Notes: generated by a model from the sequence alone, not told the origin. Positions 11,985 through 63,777 are shown, counted from the stretch's first letter. The stretch is 64,000 bases of DNA from a virus (IMGVR_UViG_3300005544_000005:5204-69203), one strand, 5' to 3'. Translations and numbers: made by a program.

Positions 11985-12434
11985 ATGCCCATCATCGCTC
12001 AAATGCCCGGACTCGATCCCACCCCCTACACGGCGTGGGGAGTACTTGGTTTGCTTGGCGTGTCGTTAATAGTGATGCTGGGGGTGGTCTGGAAATTAAT
12101 CACCCAGCAGACAGCCAACATGAAAACGCGTGATGAGCTAATCATGAATTTCGTAGATCGCCACCGTAGCGAAACAACCAAAACACTAGCCGAAGTCGCT
12201 AATACCATAGCGGCATCCGGTGAGCGTCAAGCCGCTGCCGCTACAGCATCAAATGAAAAGATTGGCGCTATCCTTACCCGCCACACTAGGATGCTGGATG
12301 AGGTGCTAATGTCTAACCGTGTGCTAGACAAGATTTCAGCTATGAAACAATCTGGCGTGGTCATGAGTCAGGCCGAAATAGAAACCCTGGTCCGGACAAT
12401 CATGCATGAACGCTCCACTGCCCGAGAGGGATAG
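11985..12434 (+). CDS. Holin-like membrane protein (one N-terminal TM, helical tail)
   Basis: TM WGVLGLLGVSLIVMLGVVWKLI; post-tail location. Confidence 0.5.
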   Translation: MPIIAQMPGLDPTPYTAWGVLGLLGVSLIVMLGVVWKLITQQTANMKTRDELIMNFVDRHRSETTKTLAEVANTIAASGERQAAAATASNEKIGAILTRHTRMLDEVLMSNRVLDKISAMKQSGVVMSQAEIETLVRTIMHERSTAREG

Positions 12435-12436
12435 AT

Positions 12437-12769
12437 ATGCGCCAGCCGTGGGGGTCTGTCGAGAAGTGGGGGCCGTGTGTGGTAGCGGTTATTGCGCTAT
12501 TTGCTGTGATAGGGATAGGGTGGACTACTTCAAGTCGAATGTCGAAAATCGAAGGACACACATACGCGCATAGTACCGCGCATGATGGGATGGAGATAGC
12601 TTTAAGAGCCGAAATTCAAACTTGGCAAGCGTATGTCGTAAGCCTGCAAGCAATTATGATTAAAAATGGCATTAAAGACGTACCATTGCCGCCTAAACCG
12701 TTATCGCCATTATCGTCGCCGTCGTCATGCCCATCGAACTGCCCGCCAACTAAAAAGAAGGAGAAGTAA
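12437..12769 (+). CDS. Single-pass membrane protein, possible lysis accessory
   Basis: TM CVVAVIALFAVIGIGW; Pro-rich basic C-terminus. Confidence 0.5.
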   Translation: MRQPWGSVEKWGPCVVAVIALFAVIGIGWTTSSRMSKIEGHTYAHSTAHDGMEIALRAEIQTWQAYVVSLQAIMIKNGIKDVPLPPKPLSPLSSPSSCPSNCPPTKKKEK

Positions 12770-12773
12770 CATC

Positions 12774-13091
12774 ATGGCCGGAGCCGCATGCAAGGTTATT
12801 ATCAACGATACCACCCAGGCGCTATCTAGATCCCTGGAGACCATCCTCACCAACCCTGATATCCACGGCGGCATGATTCCTGAGCGTGATCGCAAAACGA
12901 TGTTGCAATCGCTAGCGGACATCGATATCCTAGCGTTCACCGGCGTGTATAACGCGCCTGGTACGCCTCTAGGACTGCTAGATATCGTCTTAAAGCTTGA
13001 GACGTGTGGGCTAATCACAGACGACGTGTGGAAGGTGCTGCCTAGGCCGGCTAGGGCGGGGGTTGGAAATGGTGGCATCAAGAAGAGATAG
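12774..13091 (+). CDS. Hypothetical protein
   Basis: AAGGAG SD before ATG 12774; ends before terminator. Confidence 0.6.
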   Translation: MAGAACKVIINDTTQALSRSLETILTNPDIHGGMIPERDRKTMLQSLADIDILAFTGVYNAPGTPLGLLDIVLKLETCGLITDDVWKVLPRPARAGVGNGGIKKR

Positions 13092-28336: not shown

Positions 28337-28828
28337 ATGTCGGACGACAACATTAATCGCACGACCGATCTATCCACGCTAACCGAGGTCAATCCCGGTC
28401 TCGCCGACGTACTGTCTTCTTTACTATCCGAATACACCTCTCTCGCCGACACTATCGACTCCGCCAAAGCACGCCAGTCTGAGATAATGGCCATAGTGGA
28501 ACCGTTAACAGAGTCAGCACAGTTGAAATCCGTCAAGTCCGACAAGTGGACATTGTCGCGCACGAAAGGCCGAACCGGTGCCACGTCTGTGTATCTTCCC
28601 GGTTTACTTCAATATGGCATACCGGCGGAGGCACTAGTGAGTGCTATTCATAAGATCGATGTCACTGCTCTCAGTCAGCCTAAACTAGTCACGGAGTACG
28701 GTGTGCATATAGAGGTGTTGAAGGTCGCACTTGAAGCATCATCTAGTAAAGCGCCAGACGGGCAGGCGTTTTATACTGTACGGCGGAAGAGTGACAAGAA
28801 CGACAACGGCAAGGATGGCGGTAAGTGA
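28337..28828 (+). CDS. Hypothetical protein
   Basis: AGGAG SD. Confidence 0.65.
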   Translation: MSDDNINRTTDLSTLTEVNPGLADVLSSLLSEYTSLADTIDSAKARQSEIMAIVEPLTESAQLKSVKSDKWTLSRTKGRTGATSVYLPGLLQYGIPAEALVSAIHKIDVTALSQPKLVTEYGVHIEVLKVALEASSSKAPDGQAFYTVRRKSDKNDNGKDGGK

Positions 28829-29754
28829 CGGCTATGTTACAACCTTTAACCTTAACCGATCCGATCGGCCCTAAAACCCCTGTTTTAGATCACGGATATA
28901 TCCAAGCAATCGAGGCTTGGGGGTGTGACGAGAGGATTATTGAAGCCGCACGAATGTCAACGGGAAAGGGGTTTCTAGGGTGGGGTAATTCTACCTATAT
29001 AGAGTGTCTTAACCCTAACGGATCGTGTGTCGGCTACTCATGGCAAACAAATTCATCCGAAAACGATGCTATAACCGAAAGAACAGATTTAGGGCTAGGA
29101 ATGCGGTGTCCGTTTTGTTCGGCTGTATTGGTTGTGAACAAGGCTAAGTCGCGCATAGGAGACGGAAAACTACTCCGTTACCTCTACGAACACAAACACG
29201 CCACGCCGTTCGAAATGGCTGGCCTAGTAATCGAAGTACAGGCGCCTATTTTCGTATTCCGCGAATGGCGCACACATCGAACGTGTACACAGACAGAAGA
29301 GGAGATGTTTTGGGACGACGCGTACAATGAGATGTCGGCACGTTACACACCATTACCATACCTGAATTATATCCCAACTATCGAACGATTGCTTATCAAT
29401 AGCAAATCAAATAAGCAAGCCGGAACGGTAAAAGGCGCCGAGGAATTAACCGAGGAAAAGGCGTTAGAATTTCAAGCCGCCCTCTCCTCCGAATATGAAT
29501 ATCAAGAGAAAATCTATCAAACCGCTCTAGCTAACGGCGTGCCTAAAGAACTCGCCCGTATTCACCTCCCTGTAGGCCGCTACTCTCGTATGCGAGCCTC
29601 AGCCAATCTCCGCAACTGGCTAGCCTTCCTCACTCTCCGCATGGACGCGGCGGCTCAATGGGAAATCCGCCAATATGCGAACGAAGTGGGTGTAATCATC
29701 TCGCAACTCTATCCGCGCACATGGGAATTATTCGTGGAGGATAAAAAGATATGA
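28825..29754 (+). CDS. thyX: Flavin-dependent thymidylate synthase
   Basis: KHATPFEM, FVFREWRTHR, NEMSARY, ELARIHLP, NLRNWLAFLTLR...AQWEIR. Confidence 0.9.
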   Translation: MTAMLQPLTLTDPIGPKTPVLDHGYIQAIEAWGCDERIIEAARMSTGKGFLGWGNSTYIECLNPNGSCVGYSWQTNSSENDAITERTDLGLGMRCPFCSAVLVVNKAKSRIGDGKLLRYLYEHKHATPFEMAGLVIEVQAPIFVFREWRTHRTCTQTEEEMFWDDAYNEMSARYTPLPYLNYIPTIERLLINSKSNKQAGTVKGAEELTEEKALEFQAALSSEYEYQEKIYQTALANGVPKELARIHLPVGRYSRMRASANLRNWLAFLTLRMDAAAQWEIRQYANEVGVIISQLYPRTWELFVEDKKI

Positions 29755-54156: not shown

Positions 54157-54618
54157 ATGCCTAACAATCCGAACAAGATCCTCCTGTCCACACGGCACGA
54201 GGAACTTATCGTCAATCGCTACCCGGCCGGCGAGGATGGACTCATAAAGCCTGGCCACCTGATCGAGCAGTTCAACCATAACACGCTAGGTATGGCGTGG
54301 CAGCGAAATTCATCGGCTACCAATATGCCACAAATGATGGTGGCGTTGCCGATGGATATCGTAGGCCAGGGGATCGACACGCCGTATGTGCTTGGGGATA
54401 ACTTGGTAGCGCACCCGCTTCACTCGGGAATGGTGTTCTACGGGATCTTGCCATCCGGGCAGAATATCACCCGCGGCGATAAGCTACAGTCGAATGGCGA
54501 CGGCAACCTTAAGGCGGCGTCACCTGTCACGGCGGCAGGCGGGGTCGCCAAGTTCATCGCACAGGAGACCATCGGGCCGATTAACGTGCCGACTAGAGTT
54601 CGGGCGATGGTGCTGTAG
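54157..54618 (+). CDS. Head decoration/cement protein
   Basis: IKPGHLIE, GDKLQSNGDGNL; directly before MCP. Confidence 0.7.
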   Translation: MPNNPNKILLSTRHEELIVNRYPAGEDGLIKPGHLIEQFNHNTLGMAWQRNSSATNMPQMMVALPMDIVGQGIDTPYVLGDNLVAHPLHSGMVFYGILPSGQNITRGDKLQSNGDGNLKAASPVTAAGGVAKFIAQETIGPINVPTRVRAMVL

Positions 54619-54718: not shown

Positions 54719-55843
54719 ATGCCACTCGCCGCCGGAGTCACGGGTCCTAACCCGTCATTTACTGCAAACCCGAACGGTACAATCTTAGAGGGTGTGCCGT
54801 CTGAATACTGGCATAACCCTATCGGGTATATTCGTTCATGCACGCCGCCTATGCCACAGTCGCGCAACCCAGAGTACGAAATCCGCAACGGCGCACCTAT
54901 CCCTCTTCACGCAGAGGAACTGATCGATCGCGCTATCAAGTCAGTGGGGCTGAAGCGCTTGAAGATCCTAGCCGATCTATTGAATGCCGGGCTGAAATTC
55001 GTAGTCCCAGATTGGCTCGGCGTCATGGCCGTGCGGTGGCAGCGTGAAGGTGTCGTTGGTAATCCGCAGTTCTCCATGCTGCCTAACACACAAATGGAGG
55101 ATTTCGGCCTGGACCTCGACTTGGTGTCGCTGCCGATGTATTGCCTGTCGAACGGATTCAATATCCACCCGCGGCTGTTTGAAGAGTGGCAGCGGTATGG
55201 TACGCCGTTGGATCTTCGCAGCGCCAAGCAAGCGGTACGCCGGCAGAATGAATTCCTGGAGCTTTCTATTATCTGGGGCGCGCCGATTCAGTCGATGGGC
55301 CTGCCGGTGCCGGGCATCCTCACTGCGCCGCATGCCAACTTCGTACCGCTCACTGGTGCGCTTTCGTGGTACGACGCCAACAAGACCGGCCAACAGATCA
55401 TTGGCGATATCAGCACCATGATCGACGCGGAGAACGCCAATAACCACTACGGACCGTTTTGGCTGTATGTTGGTACTAAGGCAGGTAATCACCTCCAGAG
55501 TCTGGACTACAAGACTGCGGCATCCGCGTCGTCAATGTCTACGTGGGAGCGGATCGCGGAGATGCCGTCGATCGGTCGAATCGAGATCGCCGACTATCTC
55601 CCGGCCGACAATCCGGTCATGATCGACCCGGACGATAGCGTTATCGATGTGCTCTACGGGCAGGCGCCTACACAGTTGAGCTGGATGACCGGGCCGAATG
55701 GGTTACAGACACGGCACTTCATGGTGTTAAGCTCGATCGTGCCGCGGATCATCGAGAGCCAGACGAACCAGTCGGGGATTGTTGTTGGAAAGTTGAACCA
55801 GGGCGATGTGCTTACCTCGCCGTGGCAGTCGTTACTGGTGTAA
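54719..55843 (+). CDS. Major capsid protein (encapsulin/linocin-like HK97 fold)
   Basis: AGGAG SD; PGILTAPH, HYGPFWLYV, SIVPRI; head operon. Confidence 0.8.
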   Translation: MPLAAGVTGPNPSFTANPNGTILEGVPSEYWHNPIGYIRSCTPPMPQSRNPEYEIRNGAPIPLHAEELIDRAIKSVGLKRLKILADLLNAGLKFVVPDWLGVMAVRWQREGVVGNPQFSMLPNTQMEDFGLDLDLVSLPMYCLSNGFNIHPRLFEEWQRYGTPLDLRSAKQAVRRQNEFLELSIIWGAPIQSMGLPVPGILTAPHANFVPLTGALSWYDANKTGQQIIGDISTMIDAENANNHYGPFWLYVGTKAGNHLQSLDYKTAASASSMSTWERIAEMPSIGRIEIADYLPADNPVMIDPDDSVIDVLYGQAPTQLSWMTGPNGLQTRHFMVLSSIVPRIIESQTNQSGIVVGKLNQGDVLTSPWQSLLV

Positions 55844-55897: not shown

Positions 55898-56188
55898 ATG
55901 CAAGTCCGTGTGATGCATGGGCCAAAGGCGACAGACTATACGACATATCACAACTGCCGCGGTGTAGTCGTGAGCCGACAAGGGGATGAGATCATCGCTA
56001 GATGGAAGTCTGGCGATGACGAAGATAGAGACGTTCCGTATATGGAGAAACGTGTGCCACACGATGGCCACGAGATATTTGTAATGGGGGATAACGGAAA
56101 AACCATTACGGGGTACCGGATCAAGGGGCAGAATGGTGGGTATAACGGCGGTACCGTCAACGGAGATGGCGGCAATGGAAACGCTTAG
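55898..56188 (+). CDS. Hypothetical protein
   Basis: GGAGG SD. Confidence 0.6.
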   Translation: MQVRVMHGPKATDYTTYHNCRGVVVSRQGDEIIARWKSGDDEDRDVPYMEKRVPHDGHEIFVMGDNGKTITGYRIKGQNGGYNGGTVNGDGGNGNA

Positions 56189-56663
56189 TCAGCCGGAAGT
56201 TGTTAAGCCGAAATATCTATACCTTATAACCGCTGGCGTTGTCGTCATTCCGGGCTATGTCGGGCCGGCGCCTGATTATATCTGGAATAAGGGTGAAGTG
56301 CTGGGGGTCGGTAGTACAGTGGAGTTGACAGAGGAAGACGCGCGTGGGATCGGCGTGCACAGGGTTAGGAGGGTGGATACGACCACACATACGCCCGTGT
56401 CCGTGCCTGTGTCGCCTACAACTATGCCTACACCAGTGCCCGCACCGATCCCCACCGTAGCCACTACGGCGGTGGCTGTGGATACGGATTGGACGTTCGT
56501 CTCCACGATGACAGTGCCGGACGTCGTGGCATTGATCGACAGCATAAACGACGTCGATTCTCTCTCTTCCATCTATGAAGCGGAGAAAGCCAGCCTAGAT
56601 CGTAAGGGGGTGCTTAACCGTGCGCTATCTCGTATTGCTACGTTGAGAGGGGGTGAGAAGTAA
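56175..56663 (+). CDS. Head-region protein with Thr/Pro-rich linker
   Basis: C-terminal VPDVVALI...EAEKASLDRKGVL motif common after capsid genes. Confidence 0.6.
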   Translation: METLSQPEVVKPKYLYLITAGVVVIPGYVGPAPDYIWNKGEVLGVGSTVELTEEDARGIGVHRVRRVDTTTHTPVSVPVSPTTMPTPVPAPIPTVATTAVAVDTDWTFVSTMTVPDVVALIDSINDVDSLSSIYEAEKASLDRKGVLNRALSRIATLRGGEK

Positions 56664-56669
56664 TCGTCT

Positions 56670-57263
56670 ATGCCTATTACCATCGATGCGACTGTTAACG
56701 GCGCCAACGCCAATTCATACGTGACAGTGGACGAATTCACGTCCTACTGTGCCACACGTGTACCTGTCGTGATATGGCTGGCAACTGCCACAGCCGACTT
56801 CATAGCGGTGTGCATTATCACAGGGACTAGGCTATTCGACGCTTCGTTTGATTGGACAGGCGTCGCCGCCACGGCGACTCAGCGGCTAGCGTGGGGCCGC
56901 AATGGAATGTCCACGCGGAATGGGTACGGAATAGACGGCGCTACTATTCCCGGCGATCTCAAAGCTAGTGTATGTGAGTTTATTATCGCTGTGGGGGATT
57001 CGGCTGTACAAGGCGCTAACCGTGCCGGCGATGATCAGGCGGCTAGAGCGAACGTCGCGGGGGTGAAAGCAGGCCCGGTGGAAGTGAGATTCCAGTCCGT
57101 TAATACGTTTACGAGAGAATCTGCGGATGTGACGATTAGGCGAACGTGGCCGGAGTTGAACTATGCTAGTTTAACGGTGCCGGATATCGTAAGGTATTTG
57201 CTTCCGGAGTCGTGGTATAGACGGGCGAGTGTGATGCAGACGATACAATTTAGAGTGTCATGA
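56670..57263 (+). CDS. Head-tail adaptor (often annotated DnaT-like)
   Basis: ATVNGANANSYVTVDEF, QRLAWGR, IPGDLKASVCE, KAGPVEV. Confidence 0.8.
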   Translation: MPITIDATVNGANANSYVTVDEFTSYCATRVPVVIWLATATADFIAVCIITGTRLFDASFDWTGVAATATQRLAWGRNGMSTRNGYGIDGATIPGDLKASVCEFIIAVGDSAVQGANRAGDDQAARANVAGVKAGPVEVRFQSVNTFTRESADVTIRRTWPELNYASLTVPDIVRYLLPESWYRRASVMQTIQFRVS

Positions 57264-57600: not shown

Positions 57601-58008
57601 ATGGCCTTCCCCCTCGAAATCGTCCGCTCTGGGATTGTCCTTGCCAACGGCCTCACCAAAGGGCTACAATGCAAGGTGAAGTTTGAAGCCGTCACGGGAC
57701 AAGGGGCTAACGGCCGGACATACGCCGCGCCCATCTATATAGATGCCGCAGTGGATATGACAACTAAGGAACGGGTGAGACCGGACGGGAAGATATTGAC
57801 TATCGCGGCGACGGTGACGGTTGTGGGAGATATACCGGCTAATGGGACGGTTATCGTGGGTAATCCACGGCGTGAGCCTGTAGATCCACGCGATAGGGTG
57901 ACGTTGCCGAACGGGTTTACCGGGCCTATTATCAGTGCGCCTGGTAGTGTTATCGACCCGGGTACAAATCGCGGATTGATCCATGTGATAGAGCTGGGGG
58001 CGGTATAG
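57601..58008 (+). CDS. Head closure/stopper protein
   Basis: AAGGAG SD; DPRDRVTLPNG; follows adaptor. Confidence 0.7.
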   Translation: MAFPLEIVRSGIVLANGLTKGLQCKVKFEAVTGQGANGRTYAAPIYIDAAVDMTTKERVRPDGKILTIAATVTVVGDIPANGTVIVGNPRREPVDPRDRVTLPNGFTGPIISAPGSVIDPGTNRGLIHVIELGAV

Positions 58009-58045: not shown

Positions 58046-58633
58046 ATGCCATTCACCAGATTCTATAACAAAACTACACTAGTAAAGGATTTGCCGCTTG
58101 ACGACTACGAGGCGATGGTAGATCACTTCTACTTGCGCTATTACGGGTGGTTTTTAGAACCTATTGAGGACTTCCCGCGAACCGGCCATGACGCTTTTGT
58201 AGCATTAATCTCTGTCTGTACGATGGCGGCGCAGATAGGTGGTCTATTATATCCATGTAGTTTATTTGATAGTCCGGAAGATAATCGCACGGCCGAATTC
58301 GCTACGCTACTAGAGCATTGGTTTGGCGATAGTTTTCCGGTATTTGTGATAACCGAACCCTCTGATGCACTCACAGACACCGGACTAGCTGCCAGATTCT
58401 ACAAGAGTGTATTTAACGGTAGCGGTTCTGATCCGTCTGTAGGAATATCCGGTACTGGCGTATTGCATACGCGATCTGATGATGGCGTAGATGTTATCGA
58501 TCCTTGGGTTTTACGTGACAAGGTAAAGGAAGCGTTTGAAGAGTGGTGCTGTACGGCTAAAAAAGCGTATAGTGAGGAGGGTCGTGAGCTGTATATGCAA
58601 GCGTTCCGCACGGCAGCCGGGCTAGACAATTAG
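58046..58633 (+). CDS. Hypothetical helical protein, weakly HEPN-like
   Basis: GAGGAG SD; AT-richer than neighbours. Confidence 0.55.
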   Translation: MPFTRFYNKTTLVKDLPLDDYEAMVDHFYLRYYGWFLEPIEDFPRTGHDAFVALISVCTMAAQIGGLLYPCSLFDSPEDNRTAEFATLLEHWFGDSFPVFVITEPSDALTDTGLAARFYKSVFNGSGSDPSVGISGTGVLHTRSDDGVDVIDPWVLRDKVKEAFEEWCCTAKKAYSEEGRELYMQAFRTAAGLDN

Positions 58634-58688: not shown

Positions 58689-61600
58689 ATGAGCGAACTC
58701 AGATATTTAACGGATGCAGAGTTAGAGCAGGCATATTTCGACGAATCAGAGATTTTCGCTGATACACCAGATCGCGGCCTTGTTAAGGGCCGTTTGAAGG
58801 CGATGATGCGGTCCGCTAACGGGGCACCCGCGAAATACACGTTTATATACGGTTACAAGGTGGACACAACCGATGTCGGAGAAAGCCCATACCGTATCGG
58901 TAGATTTATAGGTACTGCGGGATTTTTTCTTAGTGATATACCCGACCAGGCCGCTATCACCCGCCACGACATCGCCGTCGTTATGATCACGACCGACCGT
59001 GTACCGTCGTATTTCGCGCAAACTTGCCAACTACTCCGCGAGTCAGAAGGGCTAGACAGCTTCCTCGATATCGAGCGGTCTGGTGTGGCTATTTCCACGT
59101 TTATAGATTCGAATCATAAGCCGAATCGTAACGCCGCGCAGGCGCTCGGATGGGGGGCCAGTCAGAATCGCAAATGGGTGTTATTCCTAGAAGACGACCT
59201 TCGATTCTGTAATCGATTCATTGACTCTGTGGCGGCGTGGCTATCAAAATATCATAGCGCTTTTGACAACGGTTACGAACGGTACACCGCATCCCCTATT
59301 TACCTTTTTGGTTCTGCGTCCATTGTCGATACTCCTAAATCGAAAGGTATACATACTGTCTACGAAGGATTACCTCACGGTGACGAGTGGGCATCCGTAC
59401 CTATTGAGGGTTTTTACGGTACGCAAGCTTTTGCAATTCTTGCAGAAGACGCAGCGAGTTTAGCTCAACATCTGGCGGCAACCGACGATCCGGTCGGACA
59501 GTATGACTTGTCTATAGCTAAATGGTGTCATGATTGCTATCCACGCGTACAGTATTTCGTCACTTCTATACCCTCTTTCGTCCAACATATCGGTGAAGAG
59601 TCTAGTATTCGTCCGGGTGGACCACATTTTACTTTCCCGTCGTGGCCGGGTGAGAAGTGGAGTTATTTACAACAGGACATAGACGATAAACGCAAAGAAG
59701 CTGTAGAGGGTATATTCGCTGAGGTTGTAAAGGGTGGTGGTAGGTTCGCAGAAATACCAGGCTCCGATAGCGACGGCAATCTCCGACCACAATCGGCTTT
59801 AACTTCCGTCAAACCTTGTAATCTGATTTGCACCCGCTGCGGCAAGCCTATAGACGAAATGGACGTATCTGTGGGAGATCGAAAGGCCGGTAATAACAGT
59901 CCAGGATATAAATTTGCGCACTACGGCTGCTACTTCGCTGATGAAATATCACATCCTTTGCGCGATCCTGCGGTCCGCGCCGCTTACAAACGCGGCGATA
60001 TTCTCGACGGGCAACGCAGAATGTTGTCTTATTTGGAACAGCAAGAGGTGTGCAGTCCAGAAAAGGGCTGCGGTGTGGCCGCCGACGATCATTTCAAAAA
60101 CCCTGACCGTATTTTGGTGTGCGATGCGCCGCCTAAAGCTAATTTCTATAGCGCCGGGCAAGTAGCGAAAGATGCAAAGAAGATGGCCGCTATTATCACA
60201 GACGGTTATGGGCCCGACATAGTGTTAGCGCCGCCGTCTCAAATACCATCGCCAGAGCAATCGTCAGAGGATACCTTAACGATTAAACCCGGTATGCTTA
60301 TCCAGTACAATAATGCCACCGCAGTAGCTATGTCCTCTAGTACGGTACGCACCTGTACTAATCCGATTTGTCAAGACCGCACACCGAGTGACGCAGAAGA
60401 TCTGCCGCCCGAAGTCGCGTACGATGACAACGACGGCAAAGGCGACCTCTCCGCTCCCATCCTCACAACCTCTCGCCGTGTCCGTGCCGAGGACTTCCGC
60501 TCTGACTGGTTACGCCAATTAGCGGCGGAAATGAATGAACCTGTCAGAATGCACAGGAAGTTGTGGGAGTATGCGGCGATTGCAAAAGTTTATCTAGAAA
60601 GAGTGCCGCGCGCTGGATATCGTGCGTTCGACGCAACCGGGTACCTACGTCCACACGTTCTCGGTTTTGGCGTAGGCCGCGACCCCTTAGCTGTATGGTT
60701 TGCCAGTCGCGGCGCCGTTGTCGTCGCCACGGATAAACCCGAAGAGACGACTAGCGATGATTGGAAGTTAACCGGCCAGCACGCGAGCGGGAAAGATCAA
60801 TTGCGACGGTTGAAGAGCACGACGGATGGGGATTGGAAACGTATTACGTATATGCCGTGTGATATGAATGACATCGCTGTCAAATGGGCCGGCGGGGTTG
60901 ACATGTTATATGACCTCACGTGGTCTTGTGGTTCATTCGAGCATATCGGCGGCATTCAAGCATCCATCGACTTCTTCGTCCGTCAAATGGCCTGCCTCAA
61001 GCCTGGCGGCGTAGCTGTCCATACCACGGAGTATTCTACACTTCACACCATGCTTGACTCGCCAGACCTATGCTTACTCCGCTCGTGTGATATCGCTATT
61101 ATCGCTAGAAGACTAGCGGAACAGGGCGACTTACTCCTCCCATTCGACCCCACGCCAGGGAATGAGCCGGCTGATTTCTATATTGATCGGCCGCCGTATC
61201 CGGGCAATCTAGTTACACCGGTAGAGGGGGCTATCCCGGCAAGTGCGAAGCTAGGCGCTATCGGTCCGTGGCATTTATCGATGGAAGTGGGTGGGCATGC
61301 TACGACATCAATTGTGCTGATTGCAATACGTGGTAATGGCGCGCACGACAAACTCACTGACAGCGAAGTCTTACAAACGGCAAACGCTAATCGTGAACTG
61401 AAAAGCTTATTTTTAGCCGGCAAACCTGATAAAACCATTAAGCCATCTATCCTCTTCCTCGGTGATGCTGTAGTATCTAGCGGCTTTGCAAAGTCAACTC
61501 ACTCCGTATGCAACTATCTTTTCTATCATGGTTGGGATGTACGCGTCTGCGGAATGAATTACTATGGGCAACATATGACAGCTGAGGATCATGCGCGTTA

Positions 61601-62720
61601 TCCGTATCCCATTCACCCCGCATTCGACCCCGTCCATGGCCCATCTTCGCCGGATGGCTCTACTCTTCTCCCGCGATTGATCTACGATTACCGCCCCGAT
61701 ATTGTCGTAATCCAACAAGACCCGTGGAATATCCCAACTTACACTCGTGCGATAGATCAGGCGTTCTCAGCTATCGATCGCGCTACCCCTCCCATTGTCG
61801 GCTTCCTAGCTGTGGACGGCGCCAACCAAGCTGGTATGCCATTGAATCGTCTTGCGGCCGTGGCAACATGGACACAATATGGATTATCGGAATTACGCTC
61901 GGGTGGTTATACAGGCCCGGGCTACGTTATTCCGCTCGGCGTCGATACTGAGGTATTCCGGCCGCTCGACCGTCAAGCGGTTCGCCGGAAATTCGCCGAA
62001 TCCGTTCGCGCGATGCCCGGGAAGCTAGCCGACGACATCGACATAGAGACGACATTTATCGTCGGATTCGTAGGGCGGAATCAGCCGCGGAAGAGGATCG
62101 ATTTACTCCTGCAATCATTCTCAGAATGGATTCGCGGCATTCACGGCAACGAACCAGTCGCCAATGCCATGCTCGTCCTACACGTCGGGCCTACCGGCGA
62201 CACGGGATTTGACATTCCATCTCTCGTTAGGTATTGGAAACTTGACGGGCGCACTATTGTCTACACGCCAGAGATCGGTCAGGGCGAGACCGAGGAATGG
62301 CTTTGTGAGCTATATAACACATTCGATCTATTCGCCACGTGTACACAAGGCGAGGGGTTCTGGTTGCCAGGATTTGAGGCAGCAGCGTGTGGCGTGCCGA
62401 TTGTAGCACCGAGGTATTCAGCGATAAGTGAGCTATTCGGCAGATCTGCTATGATGGCCGAGTGTGTGAGTACGATAGCCAGTGCGCCGATCAATGGCGC
62501 TATGTCTACATTAGGCGGATTGGTATCTATTATACACTTCGTCGAAATACTAAATAAGATGTATAGCGCTAGGAGTCTGCGTGACGGGATAGCCGAGAAT
62601 TGTTTGCGATTGTCCAGTGAATATTCTTGGCAATCAACCGGCTGTCATTTCGAGCAGATGTTACGTGCTATACTAGGTTTTTTAGAAACTCTCGATATTG
62701 ACGACGACAACGACAGCTAG
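58689..62720 (+). CDS. GT-A glycosyltransferase / SAM methyltransferase / GT-B glycosyltransferase fusion
   Basis: LFLEDD and VQHIG; HRKLWEY, LGFGVGRD, SFEHIG, LKPGG; VGRNQPRKRID, EGFWLPGFEAAACG. Confidence 0.85.
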   Translation: MSELRYLTDAELEQAYFDESEIFADTPDRGLVKGRLKAMMRSANGAPAKYTFIYGYKVDTTDVGESPYRIGRFIGTAGFFLSDIPDQAAITRHDIAVVMITTDRVPSYFAQTCQLLRESEGLDSFLDIERSGVAISTFIDSNHKPNRNAAQALGWGASQNRKWVLFLEDDLRFCNRFIDSVAAWLSKYHSAFDNGYERYTASPIYLFGSASIVDTPKSKGIHTVYEGLPHGDEWASVPIEGFYGTQAFAILAEDAASLAQHLAATDDPVGQYDLSIAKWCHDCYPRVQYFVTSIPSFVQHIGEESSIRPGGPHFTFPSWPGEKWSYLQQDIDDKRKEAVEGIFAEVVKGGGRFAEIPGSDSDGNLRPQSALTSVKPCNLICTRCGKPIDEMDVSVGDRKAGNNSPGYKFAHYGCYFADEISHPLRDPAVRAAYKRGDILDGQRRMLSYLEQQEVCSPEKGCGVAADDHFKNPDRILVCDAPPKANFYSAGQVAKDAKKMAAIITDGYGPDIVLAPPSQIPSPEQSSEDTLTIKPGMLIQYNNATAVAMSSSTVRTCTNPICQDRTPSDAEDLPPEVAYDDNDGKGDLSAPILTTSRRVRAEDFRSDWLRQLAAEMNEPVRMHRKLWEYAAIAKVYLERVPRAGYRAFDATGYLRPHVLGFGVGRDPLAVWFASRGAVVVATDKPEETTSDDWKLTGQHASGKDQLRRLKSTTDGDWKRITYMPCDMNDIAVKWAGGVDMLYDLTWSCGSFEHIGGIQASIDFFVRQMACLKPGGVAVHTTEYSTLHTMLDSPDLCLLRSCDIAIIARRLAEQGDLLLPFDPTPGNEPADFYIDRPPYPGNLVTPVEGAIPASAKLGAIGPWHLSMEVGGHATTSIVLIAIRGNGAHDKLTDSEVLQTANANRELKSLFLAGKPDKTIKPSILFLGDAVVSSGFAKSTHSVCNYLFYHGWDVRVCGMNYYGQHMTAEDHARYPYPIHPAFDPVHGPSSPDGSTLLPRLIYDYRPDIVVIQQDPWNIPTYTRAIDQAFSAIDRATPPIVGFLAVDGANQAGMPLNRLAAVATWTQYGLSELRSGGYTGPGYVIPLGVDTEVFRPLDRQAVRRKFAESVRAMPGKLADDIDIETTFIVGFVGRNQPRKRIDLLLQSFSEWIRGIHGNEPVANAMLVLHVGPTGDTGFDIPSLVRYWKLDGRTIVYTPEIGQGETEEWLCELYNTFDLFATCTQGEGFWLPGFEAAACGVPIVAPRYSAISELFGRSAMMAECVSTIASAPINGAMSTLGGLVSIIHFVEILNKMYSARSLRDGIAENCLRLSSEYSWQSTGCHFEQMLRAILGFLETLDIDDDNDS

Positions 62721-62740: not shown

Positions 62741-63148
62741 ATGGCCTACTACCTTGAACTCATAGCCATTCAACGCCCGTTCGCTATCGGTCACGATGAC
62801 GACGGGCGGGCGTTATTCTCTTTCAATCTCCGCGCGATCGGATTCGGAACCAACTCCACTTGGGAGGATGACATCGCCACCTTGATTTCCGGGGCCGGTC
62901 TTGGTACTCTGTGGTCTGACATGTTCATAGGATCATCGGCGGATATTCCATCGGGGTCGGCGAATACCACGCCGTATATAGAGATCATCGGTACCGGTGG
63001 AATGGCTACAAAATTCACAGCCGAAGATAACCAGCTACCCAATTTGAGCGTACAGATCATGGTGCGCGCTGCCGGATACCAGAATGCACAGGTGAAAGCT
63101 AATCAGATATTCGAACTGTTGAACGGAAAAAGGAATTTTCAAGTATAA
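62741..63148 (+). CDS. Tail terminator protein
   Basis: GTGG...PNLSVQIMVRAAGYQNA; precedes tail tube. Confidence 0.75.
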   Translation: MAYYLELIAIQRPFAIGHDDDGRALFSFNLRAIGFGTNSTWEDDIATLISGAGLGTLWSDMFIGSSADIPSGSANTTPYIEIIGTGGMATKFTAEDNQLPNLSVQIMVRAAGYQNAQVKANQIFELLNGKRNFQV

Positions 63149-63282: not shown

Positions 63283-63777
63283 ATGCCCGTCACCCCTCAC
63301 GGCCCACAAGCCGGCCACGGCGTTGTAATGTCGCTCGAATTAGACCCGGTCGGCGCCCCGGGCGTATTCACTCGTCTCGCCAATATAACCTCCGGCATCG
63401 ACCTCCCCAAACATGACCGGCGTGAAGCTGAGATAACAGCCCACGACAATACCATCGATGATTGGATGCTGTCGGTTCCGATGCGGGACGTACTAACCGT
63501 TACGGCGGCGTTTTGTTTCGACAACCCCAGCCACGACCACGTAACGGGCGCAATCAAGCTTTATTATTGGGGCGGAACCTTCGGTGTCAAGTTCGACGGC
63601 CCGGCATATCCTAACGGCGATTCCTCTGGATTCTATATGGCCAGTGGACAGTTGAAAACATATCAGATCAAACAGCCCAACCTTCAGGGTGAGCGCCAGT
63701 TAGACCTCACCTTCCGTTTCCGTGGACCGGAGATCATTTCCGCGCCGGCCACCGGTGCCGTTCGTTACGGTACGTAA
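63283..63777 (+). CDS. Tail tube (major tail) protein
   Basis: AAGGAG SD; DLPKHDRREAEITAHD; position. Confidence 0.75.
   Translation: MPVTPHGPQAGHGVVMSLELDPVGAPGVFTRLANITSGIDLPKHDRREAEITAHDNTIDDWMLSVPMRDVLTVTAAFCFDNPSHDHVTGAIKLYYWGGTFGVKFDGPAYPNGDSSGFYMASGQLKTYQIKQPNLQGERQLDLTFRFRGPEIISAPATGAVRYGT

Follow-up and report, generated by a model that had tools for sequence, protein, structure and literature searches.

Glycosylated phage particles have, to our knowledge, been demonstrated for only a few mycobacteriophages, and few signs of virion glycosylation in other phages were reportedly found by Freeman et al. in 2023. The mycobacteriophage systems include Che8 gp108-110, those of cluster O (Corndog/Ashwin) and that of Myrna; in these accounts the cluster O cassette comprises an O-methyltransferase and three glycosyltransferases (GTs) (PMC11600133, PMC12363180, PMC11256854), and capsid glycosylation is described as requiring Che8 gp110 and Corndog gp38 (PMC12363180). 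In the chlorovirus PBCV-1, the 638-aa protein A064R is described as combining two rhamnosyltransferase domains with a methyltransferase, the latter placing a 2-O-methyl group on the terminal rhamnose of the capsid glycan (PMC7826918, citing Speciale et al. 2020). A third point of comparison is the Synechococcus phage S-CBS4, whose gp014-016, a glycosyltransferase, a ‘galactosyl transferase’ and a SAM methyltransferase, lie between portal and protease.

The gene described here is a single open reading frame (ORF) at 58689..62720 of the window, the whole 64,000-nucleotide stretch of viral DNA that was analysed, and the ORF, its domains and the neighbouring genes mapped next lie on its plus (+) strand. 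The ORF begins with ATG, carries the Shine-Dalgarno-like AGAGGA about 8 nt 5' of its start, has no competing long ORF and encodes a protein of 1343 aa (P0001) with the order GT-A, linker, SAM methyltransferase, GT-B; it belongs to the complete, 69-kb genome of a tailed phage. The fusion is part of a same-strand late operon, with connector genes before it and, after it, the genes for tail terminator and tail tube. The head-tail adaptor Ad1 (56670..57263; PHROG 477, E 1.6e-20) is followed by a conserved connector-type gene (57601..58008; PHROG 3881, E 1.4e-4), for which searches of PDB and Pfam returned nothing decisive, and by a 195-aa gene (58046..58633) that has no family match and finds only unnamed bacterial clusters in the protein atlas. 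The fusion starts 55 nt after this last gene and ends 20 nt before the tail terminator (62741..63148; PF12691, E 1.5e-10), behind which lies the tail tube protein (63283..63777; Phage_tail_2 / Phage_TTP_12 in the protein atlas, score 0.97, TM 0.7). Promoter-like and terminator-like sites around the fusion gene do not rise above those in shuffled sequences. The original prediction had placed the gene between a stopper and the tail terminator; the terminator holds, the stopper becomes a putative one on its weak PHROG match, and the 195-aa gene intervenes. It had also recognised no HK97-gp10-like gene at this place, and none is indeed present at the fusion locus; the genome does have one, but beyond the window.

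The N-terminal ~90 aa (58689..58958) have no family match and differ among the four full fusions, the other three of which (P0002-P0004) come from independent phage-sized contigs of 63-70 kb with the same GT-A/methyltransferase/GT-B architecture. The GT-A domain follows at aa ~91-330 (58959..59678). Its own sequence matches nothing in Pfam, only 12 of 57 homologues show a weak match to MGAT4_cons, sequence searches of the PDB gave nothing useful and tblastn against 50,697 GenBank phage records gave no significant match; PHROG 854 ‘glucosyltransferase’ is found on aa 138-188 (E 9e-7). The fold is assigned by an AF2 model of aa 85-340 (pLDDT 86, pTM 0.87), for which the top Foldseek matches in the PDB are exclusively GT-A enzymes (probability 1.00) and include GnT-I, POMGnT1, LH3, ppGalNAc-T2, PBCV-1 A64R and mimivirus R655. 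The DxD-type metal/nucleotide-sugar motif E168-D169-D170 (59190..59198) is invariant in the 57 homologues and aligned with the EDD of Che8 gp110. Over 143 columns, hhalign joins the GT-A family to Che8 gp110, Ashwin gp37, Myrna gp238, ECP1 gp23 and Ardmore gp87 (95.8%, E 6.5e-9), and Ardmore gp87, 85% identical to Che8 gp110, ranks third for the GT-A model in BFVD (Foldseek, E 1.2e-10). Judged by these profile and structural comparisons, the GT-A of the fusion is a remote homologue of Che8 gp110, cluster O gp37 and Myrna gp238 and a distant member of PHROG 854. The family is almost confined to phage-sized contigs, and its only cellular matches are three prophage-like loci with structural synteny unchanged. 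Genes resembling gp110 are also present in enterobacterial phages, and this counts against a role in the virion.

A poorly conserved linker of ~260 aa (59679..60458), variable in length, containing nine cysteines and without a family match, separates the GT-A from a class I SAM-dependent methyltransferase at aa ~591-885 (60459..61343). The sequence of this second domain has no Pfam match of its own, no significant tblastn match among the 50,697 GenBank phage records and, as a single sequence, no match in the PDB, where a profile returns weak methyltransferase matches alone (E of at least 0.04). Methyltransf_11 is matched by 44 of 52 stand-alone homologues, and for the AF2 model of aa 595-900 (pLDDT 86) the top Foldseek matches are all class I SAM methyltransferases, the nearest solved folds being the small-molecule N-/C-methyltransferases CcbJ, NNMT and CFA synthase. 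Motif I, G659-F-G-V-G663 (60663-60677), retains the conserved GxGxG, and the SAM-binding acidic residues D682 and D725 are conserved. The GT4-like GT-B domain, aa ~915-1343 (61431..62717), is recognised by PF13692 Glyco_trans_1_4 on aa 1124-1258 above the Pfam cut-off (E 1.5e-9), by a weak Pfam match of Glyco_transf_4 on aa 932-1088 and by PHROG 2170 glycosyltransferase (E 3e-23). Its EX7E motif (E1222/E1230; 62352-62378) is invariant, together with R1130 and K1135, in 25 of 25 distinct homologues. Cultured phages carry homologues at 25-27% identity, next to the primase in S-EIVl and in a pre-terminase sugar cluster in TJE1; since these lie elsewhere, the GT-B family is not generally bound to virion modules. 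No membrane segment or signal peptide is predicted from the sequence, which points to a soluble protein. The predicted 1343-aa ORF with an EDD-type GT-A, a class I methyltransferase and a GT4-like GT-B is thus borne out by profiles, AF2 models with Foldseek, and conserved motifs, its domain coordinates having been accurate to ~100 nt. Three catalytic folds with intact motifs are established, and the chain is read as a soluble trifunctional enzyme.

Set beside the mycobacteriophage systems, the locus is alike in joining a gp110-type GT-A with more GTs and a methyltransferase and in its proposed product, a glycan attached to proteins of the capsid or the tail tube; as in cluster O, the GT cassette sits inside the structural module. 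The gp110-type GT adjoins further GT/O-methyltransferase genes in Che8 and Ashwin, whereas in the present phage these activities are fused into one 1343-aa chain, and glycosylation is here a prediction. The slot lies between connector and terminator genes, unlike that of the mycobacteriophages, which follows the portal or lies at the end of the genome, and the host lead is Acidobacteriota rather than Actinobacteria. The partner of the GT-A also differs from that of Che8, as it is a GT4 GT-B for which no homology to gp108 is found beyond fold class; the methyltransferase belongs to another family than the cluster O O-methyltransferase, again with no homology beyond fold class. This resemblance in fold class alone, as far as sequence comparison tells, speaks against a role on the virion.

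The fusion and A064R are both viral single chains that unite two GT domains with a methyltransferase. There is no sequence homology between them, PDB sequence searches being blank, and only a fold-level similarity to A064R domain 1 (2p72), which is among the GT-A fold matches (E 4e-5, 10% identity). The order is GT-A / methyltransferase / GT-B here and GT / GT / methyltransferase there, the fold types differ, and the present fusion is double the length, with a Cys-rich linker; A064R, moreover, comes from a giant virus of eukaryotes, where it elongates an N-linked glycan. In S-CBS4, three equivalent activities likewise lie within a siphovirus structural module, as three separate genes, and its GT-B is a homologue of the fusion GT-B (26.5% identity, E 2e-23). 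The fusion is nevertheless not simply a fused S-CBS4 cassette, because gp015 and gp016 do not resemble the GT-A and methyltransferase found here. What is new is the link, by profile comparison, of the fusion's GT-A family to gp110.

The wider distribution of the locus was followed in 30 IMG/VR records chosen solely by capsid homology; a search for related loci with the tail terminator protein alone as query found nothing. These relatives form an uncultivated siphovirus lineage with genomes of 58-85 kb, probably from soil, some members being prophage-like elements in Vicinamibacterales, and the probable host is Acidobacteriota. A group-1 GT (the GT-B) is present in 20 of the 30 records, and in five of the six that are at least 90% complete, just 5' of the gp10-like, terminator and tube genes wherever the loci extend so far; the GT-B is near-core in these capsid-anchored relatives. 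The GT-A occurs in seven of the 30, accompanied in 7/7 by the GT-B, which is nearby in the loci examined. The domains are arranged in several ways: as three genes for methyltransferase, GT-A and GT-B (L009), as GT-A followed by a methyltransferase-GT-B fusion (L003), as X-methyltransferase followed by GT-A-GT-B (L007), or, in further relatives, as a GT cassette lacking the methyltransferase, and in one relative, as a point against the virion reading, the methyltransferase lies ~19 kb away from the GT-B. Because relatives shuffle them in this manner, the domains are shown to be a functional unit and not a chance fusion. ORFs lying after the connector gene and before the GT-B include matches to GT2, GT15, DegT-type sugar aminotransferases and hexapeptide acyltransferases, and others match different methyltransferases and B12-radical-SAM enzymes; the slot 5' of the GT-B is a variable sugar-pathway island. 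In a relative without the GTs, the connector gene directly adjoins the gp10-like and terminator genes. The linkage of homologues to structural genes, which the original prediction had named as a check, is confirmed in part: the cassette holds its slot in the capsid-chosen records, and distant GT-B homologues lie outside structural modules.

Taken together, the best reading, to which we give somewhat more credence than doubt, is that the fusion glycosylates the phage's own virion protein or proteins with a methylated glycan. Decoration of the virion is favoured because the gene stands among head-to-tail genes and because its GT-A is related to a mycobacteriophage glycosylation enzyme, namely gp110, which is described as essential for capsid glycosylation. 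The proposal of a single-chain builder of virion glycans finds partial support in the late-operon position, the conserved slot and the gp110 homology, while its ‘assembly line’ is deduced from the fusion. Expressed late, the enzyme would act in the cytoplasm while virions are assembled or shortly beforehand; there the gp110-like GT-A, the retaining GT4-type GT-B and the methyltransferase would jointly build a short methylated glycan on structural proteins. The GT-A may prime or extend on Ser/Thr of a virion protein and the GT-B may extend further, the methyltransferase would O-methylate a sugar, and fusion into one chain could serve channelling or stoichiometry. The glycan might be carried by the capsid protein (54719-55843), the decoration protein (54157-54618), the product of a Thr/Pro-rich ORF (56133-56663) or the tail tube protein, all of them candidate acceptors. 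A comparison of the C-termini of capsid, decoration and tube proteins yields only a weak trend, confounded by relatedness; in the capsid and tube tails, no clear Ser/Thr signature sets GT-bearing relatives apart from GT-less ones, which counts against the virion reading.

Lipid-linked or cell-wall acceptors are common substrates of GT4 enzymes, which argues against a virion target, and the foremost rival, possible but rather doubtful, is that the enzyme, working during infection from the cytoplasmic side, alters a glycan of the host envelope, be it lipopolysaccharide, capsule, exopolysaccharide or S-layer glycan. Such a change might, for example, mask receptors and spare progeny from loss on infected cells or debris. 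A GT4 GT-B with DegT, hexapeptide and GT2 genes is typical of surface polysaccharide loci, and the relatives' slot holds genes of this sort; the methyltransferase family counts 1195 representative homologues, many of them longer proteins, one of which (P0008) pairs the methyltransferase with a GT-B, and the non-structural setting of distant GT-B homologues fits as well. However, the protein is predicted to be soluble, and the adjacent genes in the window include no flippase, polymerase or membrane partner. A gene inside the late virion operon without a promoter signal of its own would also come late for receptor masking, and the GT-A is both homologous to a virion-glycosylating enzyme and almost restricted to phage-sized contigs.

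It is less probable still that the target in the infected cell is a different one, for instance a metabolite or a host protein such as pilin or flagellin. In the PDB, the GT-A comes closest in fold to protein O-glycosyltransferases, which would suit any protein acceptor, and the folds nearest to the methyltransferase are the small-molecule enzymes named above. Yet the position beside the terminator and tube genes is fixed across the lineage and, with the gp110 homology, favours a virion acceptor, and no candidate host target is apparent.

Modification of the phage DNA had been put forward as an alternative. On this view, a modified base would be glycosylated and then methylated for the evasion of restriction; T-even and other phages do carry GTs, of both folds, that glucosylate hydroxymethylated bases. 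A search of the complete genome for a Thymidylat_synt-type enzyme found none, ThyX alone being present, and the alternative is weakened by this absence of a ThyA-type pyrimidine hydroxymethylase. The gene also lies in the late structural operon, away from replication genes, and the GT-A groups with gp110-type enzymes, its top PDB folds being GT-A enzymes, many of them protein-acting, with no DNA glucosyltransferase among them; DNA modification by the fusion is unlikely, and we regard it as a marginal prospect. Equally marginal is a mainly structural or assembly role of the GT-B part in the neck with vestigial enzymatic domains, which its near-core, fixed position between neck and tail genes would suit, but against which stand the invariance of EX7E, R1130 and K1135, the conserved EDD and SAM motifs and the GT-less relative that joins connector and terminator region directly.

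Returning to virion decoration, what stands out is that the key enzyme of the mycobacteriophages has a distant homologue here, which forms part of a chain of three enzymes and is encoded at a fixed site between neck and tail genes in a large uncultivated lineage. If the virions are coated, the known range of the phage glycosylation trait would be widened, a bacterial-virus counterpart of the chlorovirus multidomain capsid-glycan enzymes would be at hand, and a compact system of one gene would be available for studying, in a heterologous host, how acceptors are chosen and glycans are built. A glycan coat is relevant to phage stability, adsorption and recognition. More tentatively, the connector-terminator junction of this lineage could be a serotype-like, hypervariable glycan locus, with the fusion as its most condensed, single-chain form; such a locus would be anchored by the near-core GT4 enzyme, together with a gp110-like primer enzyme in some members, and would give every phage its own methylated or amino-sugar coat. 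Should this be true, virion glycosylation would be an ancient, widespread and diversifying trait that reaches beyond Actinobacteria.

The fusion is encoded by one open reading frame (58689..62720, plus strand; 1343 residues) with an ATG start preceded by an AGAGGA ribosome-binding site, on a complete virus record of 69,203 bp that carries a 30-bp terminal repeat at its end and of which the window covers bases 5204-69203; no hydrophobic stretch in the protein reaches the membrane-segment threshold. Its C-terminal domain is a GT4-type GT-B glycosyltransferase: it matches Pfam Glyco_trans_1_4 (E 1.5e-9) and PHROG 2170 (E 3e-23), and the EX7E glutamates E1222 and E1230, together with R1130/K1135, are invariant across 25 distinct homologues. 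The SAM methyltransferase (MT) and GT-A domains have no Pfam match in the window's own sequence and were therefore tested through relatives and predicted structures. The MT domain (residues ~591-885) has 1195 representative homologues; Methyltransf_11 is matched by 44 of the 52 stand-alone MT homologues, the AlphaFold model (pLDDT 86) finds only class I SAM methyltransferases as top matches, and the GxGxG motif and acidic SAM-binding residues are conserved. The GT-A domain (residues ~91-330) belongs to a small family of ~250-residue proteins that the sources assign to no Pfam family and name, if at all, only as "hypothetical protein"; its model (pLDDT 86) matches the GT-A enzymes GnT-I, POMGnT1, the LH3 glycosyltransferase domain, ppGalNAc-T2, PBCV-1 A64R and mimivirus R655, and E168-D169-D170 is invariant among 57 members. 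The original prediction of three domains and their coordinates is thus correct, GT-B being confirmed by Pfam/PHROG, and MT and GT-A by relatives and predicted structure. The first ~90 residues and the 260-residue cysteine-rich linker (59679-60458, plus strand) match no Pfam family; the linker holds nine cysteines in CxxC-like pairs, its equivalent in P0004, another protein of the same full architecture, has FCSxxC-like motifs, and both may form small metal-binding modules.

The same GT-A/MT/GT-B order is found in three further proteins, on separate 63-70 kb contigs (79%, 61% and 58% identity over 93%, 55% and 58% of the query, respectively; BLASTP). Other IMG/VR relatives arrange the domains differently: as three separate genes, MT, then GT-A, then GT-B (L009), as GT-A with an MT-GT-B fusion behind it (L003), as X-MT ahead of a GT-A-GT-B fusion (L007), or as GT-A and GT-B without MT (L004, L005, L006, L008 and L012). 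Because the same domains are fused in some phages and shuffled in others, the set is marked as a functional unit. In one relative (G020, the record of L038), a close MT-domain homologue (bases 12044-12802; E 1e-99) lies ~19 kb from that phage's GT-B; the MT is therefore not always within the neck island.

Upstream of the fusion are genes for the portal, decoration, capsid and adaptor (Ad1) proteins, a small zinc-knuckle ORF, a conserved connector-type gene and, directly 5', a gene of 195 codons (58046-58633, plus strand) that resembles only unnamed bacterial protein clusters of ~200 residues and has no homology to genes at this position in relatives. The tail terminator (PF12691) begins 20 nt 3' of the fusion and is followed by the tail tube gene, then, past the record's end, by the tail chaperone T and a 2007-residue tape measure protein; promoter-like and terminator-like sites at the fusion locus do not exceed shuffled expectation. 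In relatives, an HK97-gp10-like gene lies between GT-B and the terminator. Its absence from the slot between connector and terminator, noted earlier, holds, but a homologue (E 1e-18 to the family profile; PHROG 5) is present elsewhere in the genome, just before the tape measure gene (record bases 1679-2026, outside the window).

Thirty IMG/VR records chosen by capsid homology alone provide a test independent of glycosyltransferases. A group-1 glycosyltransferase occurs in 20 of the 30, and in five of the six at least 90% complete, just 5' of the gp10-like, terminator and tube genes where loci reach far enough. GT-A is found in 7/30, always together with GT-B and close by in the loci examined, and the MT family strongly in 3/30. 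One locus without any glycosyltransferase, L042, runs straight from connector into gp10-like and terminator genes, and in a Brevundimonas phage, the closest cultured relative as judged by capsid, no gene of that region is annotated as a glycosyltransferase. Family matches among the 33 ORFs between connector and GT-B in relatives comprise GT2 (6/33), class I methyltransferases (four), Methyltransf_24 (two), DegT-type sugar aminotransferases (two, best E 6e-112), hexapeptide acyltransferases (two), B12-binding (two), radical-SAM (two) and a GT15 mannosyltransferase (one), and come from L019, L020, L025, L028, L029, L032, L033, L046 and L048 (of L019-L048). Such mixed sugar-enzyme matches make the slot a variable glycan-synthesis island anchored by GT-B; they indicate that amino-sugar and C-/O-methylated sugar pathways are encoded inside the relatives' virion modules. 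The island of L026 (record G008) may be far larger: ~7.6 kb separates its capsid gene from its adaptor gene, and two weak group-1 glycosyltransferase matches are found 13-14 kb downstream of the former. In GTDB genomes, the GT-A family, searched with a single narrow peptide pattern, appears only at three prophage-like loci of one Vicinamibacterales (Acidobacteriota) MAG, on three contigs (L051, L052 and L053) that each carry, in this order, genes for capsid, GT-A, GT-B, terminator and tube; these related elements give a host lead for the lineage.

Among viral models searched with Foldseek, Mycobacterium phage Ardmore gp87 ranks third for the GT-A model (E 1.2e-10) and is 85% identical to Che8 gp110. 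Profile-profile comparison of the GT-A family with an alignment of Che8 gp110, cluster O Ashwin gp37, Myrna gp238, E. coli phage ECP1 gp23 and Ardmore gp87 gives a probability of 95.8% (E 6.5e-9), with EDD falling on EDD and PSFVQH on PSLVDH. Che8 gp110 and Corndog gp38 are reported to be the enzymes essential for glycosylation of the capsid (PMC12363180).

The late-operon position, the lineage-wide synteny, the soluble enzyme and the gp110 homology lead us to favour, by a modest degree, glycosylation of a virion protein by the fusion. Modification of a host envelope glycan appears rather unlikely, even though surface polysaccharide loci typically hold GT4 and DegT-type sets and the phages S-EIVl and TJE1 carry their distant GT-B homologues outside virion modules; action on another protein or a small-molecule acceptor, with which the domains' fold matches would be compatible, is improbable. 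DNA modification is very improbable, the complete genome having no ThyA-type hydroxymethylase and only the flavin-dependent thymidylate synthase ThyX (28825-29754, plus strand; E 4.5e-35). For virion glycosylation, a possible glycan acceptor, or else a head fibre, is the product of a 176-codon ORF after the capsid gene (56133-56663, plus strand), which has a Thr/Pro/Ser-rich, mucin-like middle tract and no homologue in related loci. The capsid protein itself (54719-55843, plus strand) carries a C-terminal extension, ~17 residues more than relatives; a comparison of C-termini across relatives shows no more than a weak trend, which relatedness confounds. The shortest capsid C-termini belong to three relatives lacking glycosyltransferases (L042, L044 and L047).

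In comparison with known systems, the cassette genes of cluster O Ashwin are placed between those for portal and protease, and the mycobacteriophage MT and GT-B are unrelated to those of the window beyond fold class. The nearest precedent in architecture is chlorovirus A064R, which combines two rhamnosyltransferase domains with a methyltransferase and acts on the capsid glycan (PMC7826918). The fusion is classed as a single-chain GT-A/MT/GT-B form of a phage glycosylation cassette, belonging to a lineage distant from the actinobacteriophages in which the trait has been shown; specific to this case are the fusion itself, GT-B as a near-core anchor and the homology to gp110 measured here.
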